48,402 nt of DNA from a virus: the IMG/VR virus record IMGVR_UViG_3300045988_077050, positions 1 to 48,402 of that record. One strand, 5' to 3'. Below the pieces are notes generated by a model. It saw nothing but the letters and a program-made list of their open reading frames with translations. It ran no database searches and had not been told where the DNA came from. Shown one piece after another: positions 2,902 through 36,375 of the stretch. The translations under genes were made by a program, and so were the position numbers. Numbering within the stretch: the first letter of the stretch is position 1; every line of letters starts with the position of its first letter.

Positions 2902-3472
2902 GCGTTCTACAAAATTTTATCGCAAGAATGAAGCGGAGGTTATGAAAAGGTTAGGATTTGAGCCAACAAAGAATAGCGGTGCAGGATGGGTAGAAAAGTG
3001 TGATGGACAAAACGAATCTTTTATTTGCGAATTAAAATCAACAGACAAAGAAAGTTACACGTTGAAACAAAAGACACTACAAGAGTTAGAATACCATGCT
3101 TGTGTGGCTCATAAATTGCCCGTATTTGCTTTGCAATTCTTAAACCGTGATGAAATATGGGTTGCAGTCAAAGAGGACGAATTTAAGGAATATATGAAGT
3201 TCAAGAAACAGAAACAAATAGAAATACACTTATCACCATTGTTAGAACAGGAAGAAGAAACAATTGATTCTTTTGTTGACAAAGAAGAAAAAGAAAAGTA
3301 TAATGTATATATGCCTAGTAGAAATGTGGGAAAAACATATCTTGCGAGACATGCTTACATGAAACAAAAAGAGCAAGAAAGGGAACATAGCACAAAAGAG
3401 TTTCGAAAAAGGCAAAAAGAATTAGAAAGGAAAAACAGAGAAAGGAGAAAAAAAGTTGGAAAAGAAGTTTAA
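2894..3472 (+). CDS. PD-(D/E)XK nuclease, Hjc/RecU-like Holliday-junction resolvase candidate
   Basis: E...NSGAG...D...ELK spacing typical of archaeal-Hjc-type resolvases; basic C-terminal tail. Confidence 0.5.
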   Translation: MNKRSTKFYRKNEAEVMKRLGFEPTKNSGAGWVEKCDGQNESFICELKSTDKESYTLKQKTLQELEYHACVAHKLPVFALQFLNRDEIWVAVKEDEFKEYMKFKKQKQIEIHLSPLLEQEEETIDSFVDKEEKEKYNVYMPSRNVGKTYLARHAYMKQKEQEREHSTKEFRKRQKELERKNRERRKKVGKEV

Positions 3473-3839
3473 ACAAAAAGGTATTGCGACCTTTGAAGGA
3501 TTGAGTATTGGAAAGAACAGAACCGTTCAAGTAAAGTTTAAGTTGCGCTATGATGAAATTCTGACCAGTGTAGAATTGTTACAGGGTTTAAATAATGACA
3601 TTACAGTTCATGCAAAGACAGCAATAGGTAATCCAATGAGTTTGGGAATCTTTACAATCGGTGCAGTGAATTTTGACAAAGATGGTAATGCAACTATTCC
3701 ATTCAAGTCTTTAGTTGACAATGTGAATCTGGATAACATTTGTTCCTTGGTGGACGAAGAATATATCCAGTTACGATTCCAAGCTATTATTGAATTACCA
3801 GACAATAGCGAAGGAGGTGACGAAGAATGGGAGGATTAA
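3456..3839 (+). CDS. hypothetical protein with an acidic Trp-containing C-terminal tail (GGDEEWED)
   Basis: TTG start after GGAG; tail resembles the tails of 4255, 7114 and 38930. Confidence 0.5.
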   Translation: MEKKFKQKGIATFEGLSIGKNRTVQVKFKLRYDEILTSVELLQGLNNDITVHAKTAIGNPMSLGIFTIGAVNFDKDGNATIPFKSLVDNVNLDNICSLVDEEYIQLRFQAIIELPDNSEGGDEEWED

Positions 3840-7795: not shown

Positions 7796-7824
7796 TTGAC
7801 AAACATAAAAGAACAAAGTATAAT
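7796..7824 (+). promoter_or_regulatory. sigma-A type promoter
   Basis: TTGACA 7796-7801, 17-nt spacer, TATAAT 7819-24. Confidence 0.65.
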
Positions 7825-9737: not shown

Positions 9738-10280
9738 ATGGAAAAGAAACAAGAATTAAACATTGTTTATAGAAACATTAAAGAACTAAAACCATATAAG
9801 AAGAACGCAAAGAAGCATCCAAAAGAACAGGTGGAACGAATAGCAAACAGCATTAAAGAGTTTGGGTTTACACAGCCAGTTATTGTAGATAAAAACAATT
9901 GTGTTGTTGCAGGGCATGGAAGAATACTAGGAGCAAAGAAAGCAGGATTAAAACAAGTACCTACTGTTATGTTGGAAGAACTCACAGAAGAACAAATAAA
10001 AGCATACAGGCTAGTGGATAACAAACTGAATGAAAGCGATTGGGATTTTAGTTTGTTGGATGAAGAACTAGGAATACTATCAGACGATATTGATATGGAG
10101 TTGTTTGGATTTGATACAGATATGTCAGATGAAGAATTGGAACGGGCGATAAAAGAAGTAAAGTTTAAAACAAAAGAAAAACACCTTGTCATTGTACCAT
10201 GCAAGAATGAAAAGGAAACAATAAAGGTGCAGAAAGAGATTGAGCAGTTGGGTTACAAGTGTGATATTAAGAATACATAA
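9738..10280 (+). CDS. ParB-like nuclease-domain protein (possible DpdB-like partner of DpdA)
   Basis: ELKPYKKNAKKHP...GFTQPVIVDKNNCVVAGHGRILGAKKAG matches the ParB/Srx N-terminal domain. Its stop overlaps the start of the next gene (TAATG). Confidence 0.7.
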   Translation: MEKKQELNIVYRNIKELKPYKKNAKKHPKEQVERIANSIKEFGFTQPVIVDKNNCVVAGHGRILGAKKAGLKQVPTVMLEELTEEQIKAYRLVDNKLNESDWDFSLLDEELGILSDDIDMELFGFDTDMSDEELERAIKEVKFKTKEKHLVIVPCKNEKETIKVQKEIEQLGYKCDIKNT

Positions 10281-11035
10281 TGGAGTTATATCTGAGTGGA
10301 AGTTATACAAATTCCGAAAGACAACATTTAAGAGATTTTGGTTGCTTGTTTTTGCTAAATACATATTATGATATGAGAACTTGGAATAAACAAAATGTAA
10401 TAGATTTAATAACAATTCCACAGTGTAGTTTTATGTTAGATTCTGGTGCGTTCACATTTATGAACAGCGGAAAGAAAGTGCATTGGAAAACATATGTGGA
10501 TGAATACATAGCATTTATAAACAAATATGATATACAGTATTTTATAGAACTCGACTTATATGGTGTACTGGGAGTTGAAACAACAGAGAAAATAAGAAGG
10601 TATATAGAACACCATACAGGGAAGAAACCTATACCAGTATATCATGGAACTATGCCAGTATCTTATTTTAGAAAGTTATGCCAAGAGTATCCGTATGTTG
10701 CCATATCAGCCACAGGAACATTAGAAAGCAGTAAATGGACACGAAACAAACAGGCATTGAAACAGATTATTAAAATAGGACATAGTTATGGAACAAAATT
10801 ACATGGATTAGGATATAGCAGATTAGAAAACATCAACAAACCGGATGTGCTATTTGATAGTGTTGATTCTACAAGTTGGCTAAGTGGGTGTAGGTTTGGA
10901 ACATGGTATGATTTAAAACATGGGGAATTAAAACAAAAAAATATGGCAGGGTATGGAATAACAAGAGAGAATTTTAATAGACATAATGCGAAAATATGGA
11001 TTGACAAACAAAAAGAATTATATTATAATAAATAA
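10280..11035 (+). CDS. dpdA: DpdA-like DNA-guanine transglycosylase (7-deazaguanine insertion into DNA)
   Basis: FMLDSGAFTF parallels the TGT catalytic DSGGFQ motif. A second Asp-containing segment is FDSVDSTSW. Size and context fit phage DpdA. Confidence 0.6.
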   Translation: MELYLSGSYTNSERQHLRDFGCLFLLNTYYDMRTWNKQNVIDLITIPQCSFMLDSGAFTFMNSGKKVHWKTYVDEYIAFINKYDIQYFIELDLYGVLGVETTEKIRRYIEHHTGKKPIPVYHGTMPVSYFRKLCQEYPYVAISATGTLESSKWTRNKQALKQIIKIGHSYGTKLHGLGYSRLENINKPDVLFDSVDSTSWLSGCRFGTWYDLKHGELKQKNMAGYGITRENFNRHNAKIWIDKQKELYYNK

Positions 11036-11040
11036 AATAT

Positions 11041-11078
11041 TGTTGTATGTAAAAACCAACATTAAAAAACTAAAGGAG
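11041..11078 (+). promoter_or_regulatory. candidate preQ1-I riboswitch aptamer
   Basis: P1 tgttg (11041-45) / caaca (11057-61), an 11-nt loop starting with U and ending with C, and the tail ttAAAAAACTAAaGGAG running into the SD of the yhhQ-like gene. Confidence 0.55.
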
Positions 11079-11086
11079 AAACAAAT

Positions 11087-11695
11087 ATGAAAATTACAAA
11101 GAAACAAAACATTTATTTTATCTTATCAACATTATACTGTTGTATGTTGATAGTTAGTAACATTTTGGCAAACAGAACATTTGAATTATTTAACTTTATG
11201 TTACCATCAGCAGTAATTGTATTTCCGATTGTGTACATCATTAACGATGTTATGACAGAATGTTTCGGAATTAAAAATGCAAGTAAAACAATCATGTTAG
11301 CATTTTCAATCAATTTGTTATGTGTTGTATTTTTTAATATAGCGATACAGTTACCAACAACACAGGACTTTTCAAGTTATAGTATAGTTTTGGGAAATAC
11401 TTTAAAAGCGTTACTTGCATCATTCGTTGCATATTTATCTGGTAGTTTTGTAAATGCAGGAATTATGCATATTATGAAAAACAAAACAGAAAAATATCTT
11501 ATGCTAAGGTGTGTTATATCTACTTTGTTTGGAGAAGGAATTGACGCCCTTATATTTATAAGTGTAATGTTCATTGGAGTGTTGCCAGTTAAAGTAGTAT
11601 CTACTATGATTATCACACAAGCATTATTCAAAACAATATATGAGGTTGTAGTGTATCCTGTTACAAGACGGGTTATAAAACAAATAAACAAATAA
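11087..11695 (+). CDS. yhhQ: queuosine-precursor (preQ0/preQ1) transporter, YhhQ/VUT family
   Basis: Multi-pass membrane protein. VSNILANR..., FPIVYIINDVMTECFG, ASFVAYLSGSFVN and STLFGEGIDALIF align with YhhQ (COG1738) signatures. Confidence 0.8.
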   Translation: MKITKKQNIYFILSTLYCCMLIVSNILANRTFELFNFMLPSAVIVFPIVYIINDVMTECFGIKNASKTIMLAFSINLLCVVFFNIAIQLPTTQDFSSYSIVLGNTLKALLASFVAYLSGSFVNAGIMHIMKNKTEKYLMLRCVISTLFGEGIDALIFISVMFIGVLPVKVVSTMIITQALFKTIYEVVVYPVTRRVIKQINK

Positions 11696-11728
11696 ACATT
11701 AAAATATACAACAATATAATTAATTAAG

Positions 11729-11755
11729 GACAGAACATTGTTTCTGTCTTTTTTA
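11729..11755 (+). terminator. rho-independent terminator
   Basis: gacagaa / ttctgtc, then TTTTTT. Confidence 0.75.
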
Positions 11756-11783: not shown

Positions 11784-11811
11784 TTGACATTTCTATATGC
11801 TATGTTATAAT
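11784..11811 (+). promoter_or_regulatory. sigma-A type promoter with extended -10
   Basis: TTGACA 11784-89, 16-nt spacer, TGtTATAAT ending at 11811. Confidence 0.65.
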
Positions 11812-11862
11812 ATAACCATCAAGAGGAAAACAAAGAACAAGGAGACAAAGGAGAGCAAGGAA

Positions 11863-12063
11863 ATGTTTGAAGTAGGAAAGATTTATGGAGAAGATGCAGT
11901 AAAGTATGAGGTAGTTGCAAGAACAAAGAAAACAGCAACAATCGTAGAAGTCCATCATTTTGGTAAGTTTAATGAGAAAAGAAGAAATGAAAGAACAGTG
12001 AAAATTTCTAATTGGAACGGAAGAGAAGCAATTGTGTTCGGAAGTAGAACAGTGTTAGCATAA
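11863..12063 (+). CDS. hypothetical protein
   Basis: AAGGAG lies before ATG 11863. The earlier ATG at 11797 is inside the promoter. Confidence 0.55.
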   Translation: MFEVGKIYGEDAVKYEVVARTKKTATIVEVHHFGKFNEKRRNERTVKISNWNGREAIVFGSRTVLA

Positions 12064-12248: not shown

Positions 12249-12320
12249 TGCTCTATAGTGTAAAGGTTAGCACACAAGATTTTGATTCTTGTAATATTGG
12301 TTCAATTCCAATTAGGGCAG
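12249..12320 (+). tRNA. tRNA-Gln (anticodon UUG)
   Basis: Hand-folded cloverleaf. Acceptor tgctcta/tagggca (U1-A72), D arm gtgt/gcac with GG in the loop, anticodon stem caaga/tcttg, loop tTTTGat, T arm attgg-ttcaatt-ccaat, discriminator G. No encoded CCA. Confidence 0.9.
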
Positions 12321-12882: not shown

Positions 12883-12912
12883 TTGACAAACAAAAATTAA
12901 ATATGGTATAAT
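12883..12912 (+). promoter_or_regulatory. sigma-A type promoter with extended -10 (drives terL)
   Basis: TTGACA 12883-88, 18-nt spacer, TGgTATAAT ending at 12912. Confidence 0.65.
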
Positions 12913-14295: not shown

Positions 14296-15249
14296 TAAAT
14301 ACCACAAGCTAGGCGTGTATAAAAGGATGGAAGAAACTGGGAAAGCTGAAATGCTAATCAGAGCGGAAGTTATTAAGCGTATAGCATAATAACACGCACA
14401 ACGCATAGGGATTGAGGAAACAATAATATCCCCACGAGCCATTGTAATTTAAAATAGGAGGTAGCAAATAATGTATGAAAGAATAAAAGTAAATACATTA
14501 GCGAAAGAATACGAACAGGCATTAGATATCTATGAAGTAGATAAGTATGGAAATGTCTATGGAAATAATGGAATGGAATTAAAACAAAGTTATAATAGGA
14601 GTGGATATAAACAAGTATCTTTAAAGTTAAAAAATAAAAGAAGATGGAAGAAATGTCTTGTACATAGATTGGTCGCACTTGCTTTTGTTTCTGGGAGGAC
14701 AGAACAATATAATGAGGTAGACCATTTAGATACAAACAAAAACAATAACAAGTGGAATAATTTAAGATGGACAGATAGAATAGGAAATATGAACAATGAA
14801 AACACAGTTTTTAAAATGTGGAATCAGAATGGAATTGAATGTTATGTGTATGATTTTAAATTGAATTATATCGGAAAGTTTGGTTCTTTGGATGAAGCAC
14901 AGGAAGCAATCGGTAGAGTAATACATGGAATAAATACAAGAGTAAAAGAATATTATATTTTAGATAGTCCAGATTTAAAGAAAGTGCTAAAAATAAACAA
15001 AAAACAAAAGATACAATCTATTGTTATAACAGATATTGAAACAAATGAAAAATATTATTTCTATTCCAACAGACAGGCAAGAAAGTTTTTTGATGGAAAG
15101 GTAAACATTACGCAAGCCATACAGAAGAATTGGACAGTAAGAGGGAAATATAAGGTTCGTAATTTAAACTATAAAAAATTAATAGGTATGCTAGACTTAT
15201 AGGAATAGTAACTATAAGAGGATAGGATAAAAAGCCTATCGAATTAACG
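14296..15249 (+). mobile_element. putative group I intron carrying an HNH homing endonuclease
   Basis: Exon end acacgtt (14289-95) pairs with intron ggcgtgt (14312-18), with a U.G pair at the splice site. The intron ends in G 15249. Splicing restores ...DPHTF-SALWYALDRY..., the terminase H..DALRYAL-type motif. Confidence 0.6.
14471..15202 (+). CDS. HNH homing endonuclease (NUMOD4 + HNH_3, I-HmuI-like)
   Basis: YEVDKYGNVYG...SGYKQVSL (NUMOD4) and VHRLVALAFV...VDHLDTNKNNNKWNNLRW (HNH); its own GGAGG RBS. Confidence 0.85.
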   Translation: MYERIKVNTLAKEYEQALDIYEVDKYGNVYGNNGMELKQSYNRSGYKQVSLKLKNKRRWKKCLVHRLVALAFVSGRTEQYNEVDHLDTNKNNNKWNNLRWTDRIGNMNNENTVFKMWNQNGIECYVYDFKLNYIGKFGSLDEAQEAIGRVIHGINTRVKEYYILDSPDLKKVLKINKKQKIQSIVITDIETNEKYYFYSNRQARKFFDGKVNITQAIQKNWTVRGKYKVRNLNYKKLIGMLDL

Positions 15250-36346: not shown

Positions 36347-36375
36347 TTGACAAACAAAAAGTAAGGTAGTATAAT
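36347..36375 (+). promoter_or_regulatory. sigma-A type promoter
   Basis: TTGACA 36347-52, 17-nt spacer, TATAAT 36370-75. Confidence 0.7.

Follow-up and report, generated by a model that had tools for sequence, protein, structure and literature searches.

A divergent preQ1-I-type aptamer predicted upstream of a yhhQ-type transporter gene in a phage genome

Class-I preQ1 (preQ1-I) riboswitch aptamers are able to bind both preQ1 and preQ0. The described types share the determinants of the alpha ligand site, namely a G5-C18 floor pair, U6, a specificity cytosine before the 3' strand of helix P1, and A30 in the A-rich segment L3, and type II is defined by an adenine directly before the specificity cytosine (PMC11625349). 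In the structure of the Carnobacterium antarcticum (Can) type-I aptamer, P2 is largely non-canonical, and the pseudoknot mechanism works even when separated from its Shine-Dalgarno (SD) sequence (PMC10018353). Riboswitches have been called a rare feature in phages (PMC9004378), and phages that encode DpdA but no preQ0 synthesis genes may use host preQ0 or uptake (PMC6884629). Here, we analysed a stretch of viral DNA of 48,402 nt (positions 1 to 48,402 of IMG/VR record IMGVR_UViG_3300045988_077050, hereafter the window), in which an initial annotation had proposed a preQ1-I aptamer placed to control a yhhQ-type transporter gene beside a dpdA-like gene. We consider it likely that the RNA at 11041-11078 is a divergent preQ1-I aptamer that would function as a preQ1/preQ0-responsive translational OFF switch for yhhQ, and synteny, conservation, P1 covariation, and gene association all favor that core proposal. 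We infer binding and regulation, and with them which ligand is bound, the P2 pseudoknot, the sign of the regulatory effect, and where transcription starts.

The element occupies the 51-nt gap at 11036-11086, between the dpdA-like stop codon TAA (11033-11035) and the yhhQ ATG at 11087, before the only yhhQ gene in the window. A reading of the sequence bears out the annotated P1, the 11-nt U...AC loop, the gap, and the start codon (Table 1). Positions 11062-11078, from the tail through the SD, read UUAAAAAACUAAAGGAG, with the tail alone given as AAAAAACUAAAGGAG; the tail of the Bacillus subtilis (Bsu) aptamer, AAAAAACUAA, is identical, as had been claimed. Within this segment, AAAAAA-C at 11064-11070 (the A-run and then the tail C) falls in invariant columns of the family, and the SD lies at the same distance past the tail in all relatives. 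The gene that follows directly had been described as a classical preQ1-I target, and yhhQ is indeed documented as regulated by preQ1 riboswitches (PMC11625349).

Similar elements precede yhhQ in many other viral contigs. A DNA pattern in which four of the five stem positions were free matched 35 IMG/VR loci. The stem-forming matches used nine different stems (e.g., AGAGG/CCUCU, CCUGG/CCAGG, and AGCGG/CCGCU) and were followed by a start codon at a distance of 10-14 nt, shortened to 6 nt in one locus (L159); in a truncated-looking locus (L150), no start codon was found past the stem-forming match. Among ten stem-forming matches whose downstream genes were tested, nine preceded Vut_1/YhhQ and one preceded QueC, and no such gene was found downstream of pattern matches without a stem. 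We note that this gene association is an independent check on a seed pattern that was derived from the window. A pattern with the stem fixed gave mostly chance hits among the matches listed, and only those with the A-rich tail were usable.

The same association held in a sample of 150 viral YhhQ loci taken regardless of upstream sequence. A covariance model built from 16 viral instances other than the window placed an aptamer just upstream of yhhQ at 45 of the 70 loci from one YhhQ lineage and at 9 of the 80 from a second, and gave a single match in the window, at 11039-11079 (52.3 bits, E = 2e-14). The YhhQ proteins downstream of the independent instances are 16%-40% identical to that of the window, so the motif has been kept not merely through recent common descent. 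Almost all aptamer-bearing viral loci share ParB, a DpdA-like gene, sometimes QueC, the aptamer, and YhhQ. Rather than a one-off, the element belongs to a widespread viral module that recurs in dozens of IMG/VR contigs, and its conservation, covariation, and association with yhhQ or queC across these contigs argue that it is not a product of chance.

Helix P1, annotated as five base pairs, is supported by covariation. In alignment A2, whose rows were pre-filtered for at least four pairs, 99.2% of cells were paired, with double changes at four of the five pairs, and in the YhhQ-anchored set A7, which was aligned to the covariance model, 99.5% were paired, with compensatory changes in 52 cells. 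Controls slid by 1-3 columns paired in 17%-62%. RNAalifold predicts the identical helix, and the closing pair is G-C in all 24 sequences of A2 and all 40 of A7. Loop positions invariant in A2 were the U, G9, A12, and the terminal AAC. The assignment of the two loop ends to U6 and C17 also stands: the U6 and specificity-cytosine columns are invariant in both A2 and A4, with their roles as published (PMC11625349). All four alpha-site determinants are present in the window (G11045-C11057, U11046, C11056, and A11069) and are invariant in the family.

The remainder of the loop is more variable. In the YhhQ-anchored loci, loops form a continuum that begins with UAUG, UACG, UUCG, UCUG, or UUUG and continues with CAA-N-AAC, while a few end in AUC. 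Among 63 distinct viral aptamers, the loop ends with AC in 54 and reads AU at positions 7-8 in 39. We note the tentative possibility, which we think more likely wrong than right, that the 11-nt-loop aptamers (U-N-Y-G-C/U-A-A-N-A-A-C with a CUA tail) are a distinct, virus-enriched fourth preQ1-I subtype in which the type-II AC sits on a type-I P2/tail scaffold; such members would bind just one base, perhaps preferring preQ0, the DpdA substrate, and would travel as a mobile riboswitch-yhhQ cassette in phage DNA-hypermodification modules. If true, the phage would sense the precursor pool for an anti-restriction modification.

These loops also bear on whether the aptamer, while a real preQ1-I fold, is tuned to another effector or binding mode, such as a preference for preQ0, which QueC makes and DpdA inserts, or a one-ligand, type-I-like scaffold with a lost beta site. 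This loop type carries A at both beta-site positions, U7 and U16, although it retains C31 and CUA, and the predominance of AC ends and of AU at positions 7-8 is compatible with such tuning. Moreover, the modules carry DpdA and often QueC, so the relevant base pool may be preQ0. However, conservation extends to every alpha-site contact, the floor guanine that touches the preQ1 aminomethyl group among them; class-I aptamers in general already bind preQ1 and preQ0; and positions 7-8 vary freely (AU, AC, UC, UU, or CU), so they provide no new fixed recognition motif. We regard a retuned aptamer as improbable relative to the reading of a divergent preQ1-I switch that responds to preQ1 or preQ0.

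The P2 pseudoknot had been annotated as a UAG:CUA pairing with a bulged U. We rejected this Bsu-like P2, as it would consume U6. In the Rfam alignment, UAUG-UAAA of the window is placed onto the type-I consensus UUCG-UAAA, away from the Bsu loop. A Can-like, largely non-canonical P2 is possible by analogy; the Can mapping would involve A12-U32, G9-A33, and C10-G34, with just the 5' edge of the SD involved. The candidate P2 columns are almost invariant across the family.

The score of the element against Rfam was low. A scan of the window at the gathering thresholds reported only a tRNA and not the aptamer site. In a permissive scan of 10980-11140, RF00522 (PreQ1) ranked first of 4227 Rfam families, with a match over the full model span (1-45) at 17.4 bits (E = 0.17 for 161 nt and 4227 families; by our arithmetic, equivalent to an E of about 0.01 for a single family over the whole window). 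The gathering score of this family is 39 bits, which is an operational threshold and not a biological feature. The initial annotation had treated a score below it as a reason to doubt the riboswitch; the score does fall below, but most relatives do too and one passes at 41.2 bits, so the failure reflects an AU-rich P1 and a minority loop type. Scores descend from this passing locus (L183, loop UUCGCAAAAAC), the only one of about 23 scored aptamers above the threshold, through relatives with UAUG loops (21.9-36.1 bits) to the window, which is lowest. All scored relatives except L183, whose loop differs from the window type at two bases, were below threshold (21-37 bits). The low score of the window is explained by its AU-rich stem, the U at loop position 10, and the extra A in the tail. 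These small steps link the window element to certified preQ1-I members.

Close relatives of the phage address whether the element is instead a decaying relic that arrived with a captured yhhQ cassette and has lost regulation. Contigs reached through YhhQ homologs (68%-93% identity) have the gene order ParB, DpdA-like gene, gap, YhhQ, and terminase. Eight of these relatives retain the tail and the aptamer core GUUGUAUG(N)AA(N)AACCAAC, but they have diverged in the 3' coding region of dpdA, in the 5-9 nt preceding P1, and in the spacer from SD to ATG. The basal P1 pair is U-A in the window and A-U in L015-L019, a compensatory swap that keeps the pair, and every ligand-contact position is intact. 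One relative, L017 (YhhQ 69% identical), precisely lacks the aptamer at L017:2470-2500, where a 12-nt gap is left, and keeps the promoter (TTGAAA...TATAAT) and SD, which makes it a natural deletion control. This clean deletion indicates that the element is a discrete, dispensable module. The deletion, together with the lowest Rfam score in the series, the weak P1, and the extra A between tail and SD, could be read as decay, but conservation of the core while adjacent non-coding bases diverge and the compensatory swap make a relic quite unlikely, somewhat more so than a retuned aptamer.

Taken alone, the element is only marginally above chance. When the AT-rich window was dinucleotide-shuffled, a generic descriptor (a 5-bp stem closed by G-C, a U...C loop, and an A-run then C) turned up in 41% of shuffles, or in 1.7% if an SD was also required to follow, and single-sequence thermodynamics was uninformative. 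A fortuitous hairpin without sensing, located in an A-rich leader whose SD is ordinary, would suit the 41% figure and the non-significant folding energy but is very improbable and effectively refuted by the comparative data, given that yhhQ occurs only once in the window and the site lies in the single gap preceding it, and that conservation, covariation, and an exclusive yhhQ/queC association extend over dozens of viral contigs.

Several points weigh against a functional preQ1-I riboswitch at this site. Its Rfam score is under half of the gathering score. The minimum free energy of -2.1 kcal/mol (z = +0.89) is no more stable than shuffles, and P1 is AU-rich. A Bsu-type Watson-Crick P2 cannot form, and the variable tail base (A/C) showed no covariation with loop position 8, 10, or 13 that would support a P2. 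The loop matches no described subtype cleanly, with UA rather than UU and AC rather than UC, yet a type-I CUA tail. In the clade of the window, loop position 10 is U and one more A precedes GGAG, which puts the SD farther from the putative pseudoknot. The clean loss in L017 suggests that the aptamer is dispensable. The comparative set was partly fished with a window-derived pattern, and some alignments were filtered for pairing. Finally, the support is computational.

Table 1. Features of the aptamer locus in the window
Feature	Position	Strand	Basis or remark
DpdA-like (TGT-superfamily) transglycosylase gene	10280..11035	+	directly upstream of gap
Perfect sigma-70-type promoter TTGACA-17-TATAAT	11001..11029	+	12/12 consensus, inside dpdA-like 3' end
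P1 5' strand UGUUG	11041..11045	+	sequence; P1 covariation in A2, A7, RNAalifold
Conserved floor guanine G5	G11045	+	closing G-C pair G11045-C11057
Loop UAUGUAAAAAC, 11 nt	11046..11056	+	sequence; Rfam alignment onto consensus loop UUCGuAAaCcUC
U6 and specificity cytosine	U11046, C11056	+	roles from PMC11625349
Candidate P2 partners in loop	G11049, U11050, A11052	+	
P1 3' strand CAACA	11057..11061	+	sequence; P1 covariation
A-rich L3 UUAAAAAA	11062..11069	+	A-run invariant in alignments; role from class-I structures
Ligand-contacting A30, by correspondence	A11069	+	class-I structures
Tail CUAAA, 3' strand of putative P2	11070..11074	+	analogy with Can type-I structure; CUA invariant in A4
Shine-Dalgarno GGAG	11075..11078	+	sequence; 8-nt spacer to ATG 11087
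yhhQ-type queuosine-precursor (preQ0/preQ1) transporter gene	11087..11695	+	PF02592 3e-38 (Vut_1/YhhQ)
Intrinsic-terminator-like hairpin after yhhQ	11726-11751, with T-run to 11761	+	10-bp stem then TTTATTTATT

The annotated identities of both neighboring genes held up. The transporter assignment is backed by its Pfam match and by TIGR00697 ("queuosine precursor transporter"; 97.8 bits, cut-off 51). The JGI gene call for yhhQ (P0004) begins at an internal start and has 165 aa, and with this short call the aptamer would seem far from the gene. We favor the 202-aa open reading frame (ORF) from 11087, a start supported by full-length homologs of 203 aa and by the SD. The upstream protein matched phrog_887 ("queuine tRNA-ribosyltransferase") at 1e-41 and showed 33% identity (E = 1e-25) to an annotated tRNA-guanine transglycosylase (TGT) of Fusobacterium phage phiFN37. 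Its AF2 model (pLDDT 92.2) has a TGT-type TIM-barrel fold, with tRNA-guanine transglycosylases as all of the first 24 Foldseek matches in the PDB and most of the top 50 (TMq 0.57-0.67). Its identity as DpdA is unproven because it has no Pfam match and reaches only 21.9 bits against NCBIfam DpdA (cut-off 200); no PDB sequence match was found either. "DpdA-like" is a fair label, and DNA as the substrate is putative. A large terminase gene 1.3 kb downstream of yhhQ, starting about 2 kb from the aptamer, identifies the window as phage. No QueC, QueD, QueE, or FolE was found in the window, so the phage must draw on a host or imported base, and a feedback-controlled salvage transporter is physiologically sensible. 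The phage thereby falls into the group, described by Hutinet et al. 2019 (PMC6884629), in which DpdA is encoded but preQ0 synthesis genes are missing.

The transcriptional context differs from that of most other viral loci, where no promoter is present and only 2-8 nt separate the aptamer from the stop codon of the preceding gene; there, it is intercistronic and can act only on yhhQ translation. The promoter in Table 1 is kept at 11-12 of 12 consensus positions in relatives of the window and would place the transcription start at about 11035-11038, a few nt before P1. Past the terminator-like hairpin, the next perfect promoter is at 11784-11811. Together, yhhQ and the aptamer look like a self-contained unit, with an RNA that would start a few bases before P1. 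The annotated intercistronic position is correct in that the element lies in a 51-nt gap, but the element is also at the 5' end of its own transcription unit. A role for the aptamer as a transcription terminator was rejected, as it has no U-run and the SD follows within 13 nt. Across the window (376-43790), perfect TTGACA-N16-18-TATAAT promoters occur at twelve sites (e.g., 3276-3304, 7796-7824, 11001-11029, 11784-11811, 12883-12912, and 36347-36375), each of them on the + strand; by chance, 0.16 would be expected. Several share the extended form TTGACAAACAAAAA, and the phage seems to depend on host-sigma consensus promoters throughout.

Several additional observations concern this locus and its counterparts. 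The 10-nt sequence TGTTGTATGT occurs as a direct repeat at 11041-11050, covering the P1 5' strand and loop start, and at 11138-11147 inside yhhQ (codons L-Y-C-C-M); this is probably a coincidence, as the coding copy reads GCAGTATGC in relatives with AGUUG stems. The second-best covariance-model match, at 15152-15188 (+) (16.4 bits, E = 0.0035; a 4-bp stem and AUAAAAAAUUAAUAGG), lies away from the yhhQ region in a context that lends it no support, and probably arose by chance. Past the promoter at 11784-11811 and a small ORF (11797-12063), the window encodes a tRNA-Gln (anticodon UUG; 12249-12320, +), which is not a queuosine-modified tRNA. A 298-aa database protein (P0281) joins about 66% of the DpdA-like sequence (76% identity) to a Vut_1 domain and is either a fused DpdA-YhhQ ORF, with the aptamer gap lost or frameshifted, or an assembly or gene-calling artefact. 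In a close relative at L032:10710-12150 (- strand; DpdA 74% and terminase 73% identical to those of the window), the corresponding position is taken by a yhhQ from another lineage (TDVIGEIWGK type), preceded by an aptamer of the same type whose tail is altered, CUAUUAAAAAGAG; this replacement suggests exchange of riboswitch-yhhQ cassettes.

Searches beyond these contigs returned few further examples. A single-protein scan of viral contigs found no relatives, and alignment-based scans of genome and metagenome collections found only distant YhhQ loci, all without the motif. In a search for bacterial counterparts through YhhQ homologs, the best 120 were all on contigs no longer than 63 kb. No isolate example was found, since the YhhQ-encoding phages in GenBank (CDKM15, MS1, phiFN37, and a fecal contig) lack a gap upstream of yhhQ and gave no match to Rfam at E <= 1. 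The aptamer of viral locus L153 is a GC-rich relative, AGAGGUAUGCAAUAACCCUCUAUAAAAAACUAAGG. On a metagenome contig, L007:2440-2500 precedes a distant YhhQ (40% identity) and reads GUGUG-UAUCUGAUAAC-CACAU-AAAAAAC-AGGAG, resembling a type-II preQ1-I aptamer with a CUG:CAG P2; it has no Rfam match at E <= 1. Viral contig L094, which also bears a preQ1-type aptamer before yhhQ, contains a sub-threshold Glutamine-II riboswitch match at 3457-3519 (+) (22.3 bits, gathering score 33, E = 0.23).

The arrangement suggests the following mechanism. The mRNA would probably begin a few nt upstream of P1, from the promoter at 11001-11029. At low levels of the free 7-deazaguanine base (preQ1, and probably preQ0), the SD and the A-rich tail would be single-stranded, and YhhQ would be made and import the base. 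When abundant, the base would stack on the G11045-C11057 pair and be read by C11056 (through Watson-Crick pairing), U11046, and A11069. The A-run would then dock in the P1 minor groove, and the CUAAA tail would fold back on G11049, U11050, and A11052 to form an H-type pseudoknot that abuts GGAG and reduces ribosome loading, giving feedback control of precursor salvage. In the window, GGAG cannot be occluded directly by Watson-Crick pairing, and repression would depend on the pseudoknot forming right beside the SD.

Both the RNA class and its regulated target are already known, and what is new is their setting in a phage DNA-modification module. A metabolite sensor within a gene module that phages use to hypermodify DNA against restriction implies feedback-controlled salvage of the modification precursor. 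It also provides a handle on the largest and least understood group of Hutinet et al. 2019 (PMC6884629), DpdA phages without a preQ0 pathway, and suggests that these depend on an imported or host base and that the size of the pool matters. Nearly all of these viral aptamers fall below the Rfam gathering threshold, so that counts of riboswitches in viromes are too low. The differences among natural loops at positions 7, 8, and 16 can serve directly as test cases for one- versus two-ligand binding in class I. Within the literature library that was searched, no paper combined DpdA with a riboswitch, and a search for preQ1 riboswitches with phage and YhhQ or DpdA returned nothing relevant.

Among phage systems, the closest are the 7-deazaguanine gene sets of Hutinet et al. 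2019 (PMC6884629), which share a DpdA-type transglycosylase and a YhhQ transporter with the window. They differ in that no riboswitch is mentioned (PMC6884629), whereas here an RNA sensor precedes the transporter, and in that the DpdA-like protein of the window belongs to a short (251 aa), Pfam-negative branch. The glutamine riboswitches of marine phages (PMC9004378) are likewise metabolite-sensing leaders on phage genomes but differ in class, ligand, and regulated function. The annotation had called a riboswitch in a phage genome unusual, and riboswitches are likewise called rare in phages in the literature (PMC9004378).

Among preQ1-I subtypes, the window resembles type II (B. subtilis queC and T. 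tengcongensis [Tte]; RF00522) in its 5-bp P1 closed by G-C, U6, AC before the P1 3' strand (A11055-C11056), A-rich L3, tail leading into the SD, Tte-like translational design, and tail identical to that of Bsu. It differs from type II in its 11-nt loop, UAUGUAAAAAC, in the impossibility of the Bsu UAG:CUA Watson-Crick P2, in its score of 17.4 bits versus 39, and in its phage location after a DpdA-like gene. With type I (Carnobacterium antarcticum, PDB 7REX/8FB3), it shares the loop segment G9-U10-A11-A12-A13 and the CUA tail, and the P2 mapping is possible. Unlike type I, it has no UU after P1 and no UC before the 3' strand (UA and AC, respectively, in the window), has A at beta-site U7 and U16 and U at C8, and has a loop one nt shorter; of the two-ligand features, only CUA and C31 are there, and two-ligand binding is doubtful because of the beta-site changes. 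Type III combines UU after P1 with AC and a pyrimidine-rich loop that forms Watson-Crick pairs with AAGG, whereas the loop of the window is purine- and A-rich and contains no anti-SD. By published criteria, the window aptamer is closest to type II, with the CUA tail and G9, A11, and A12 of type I.

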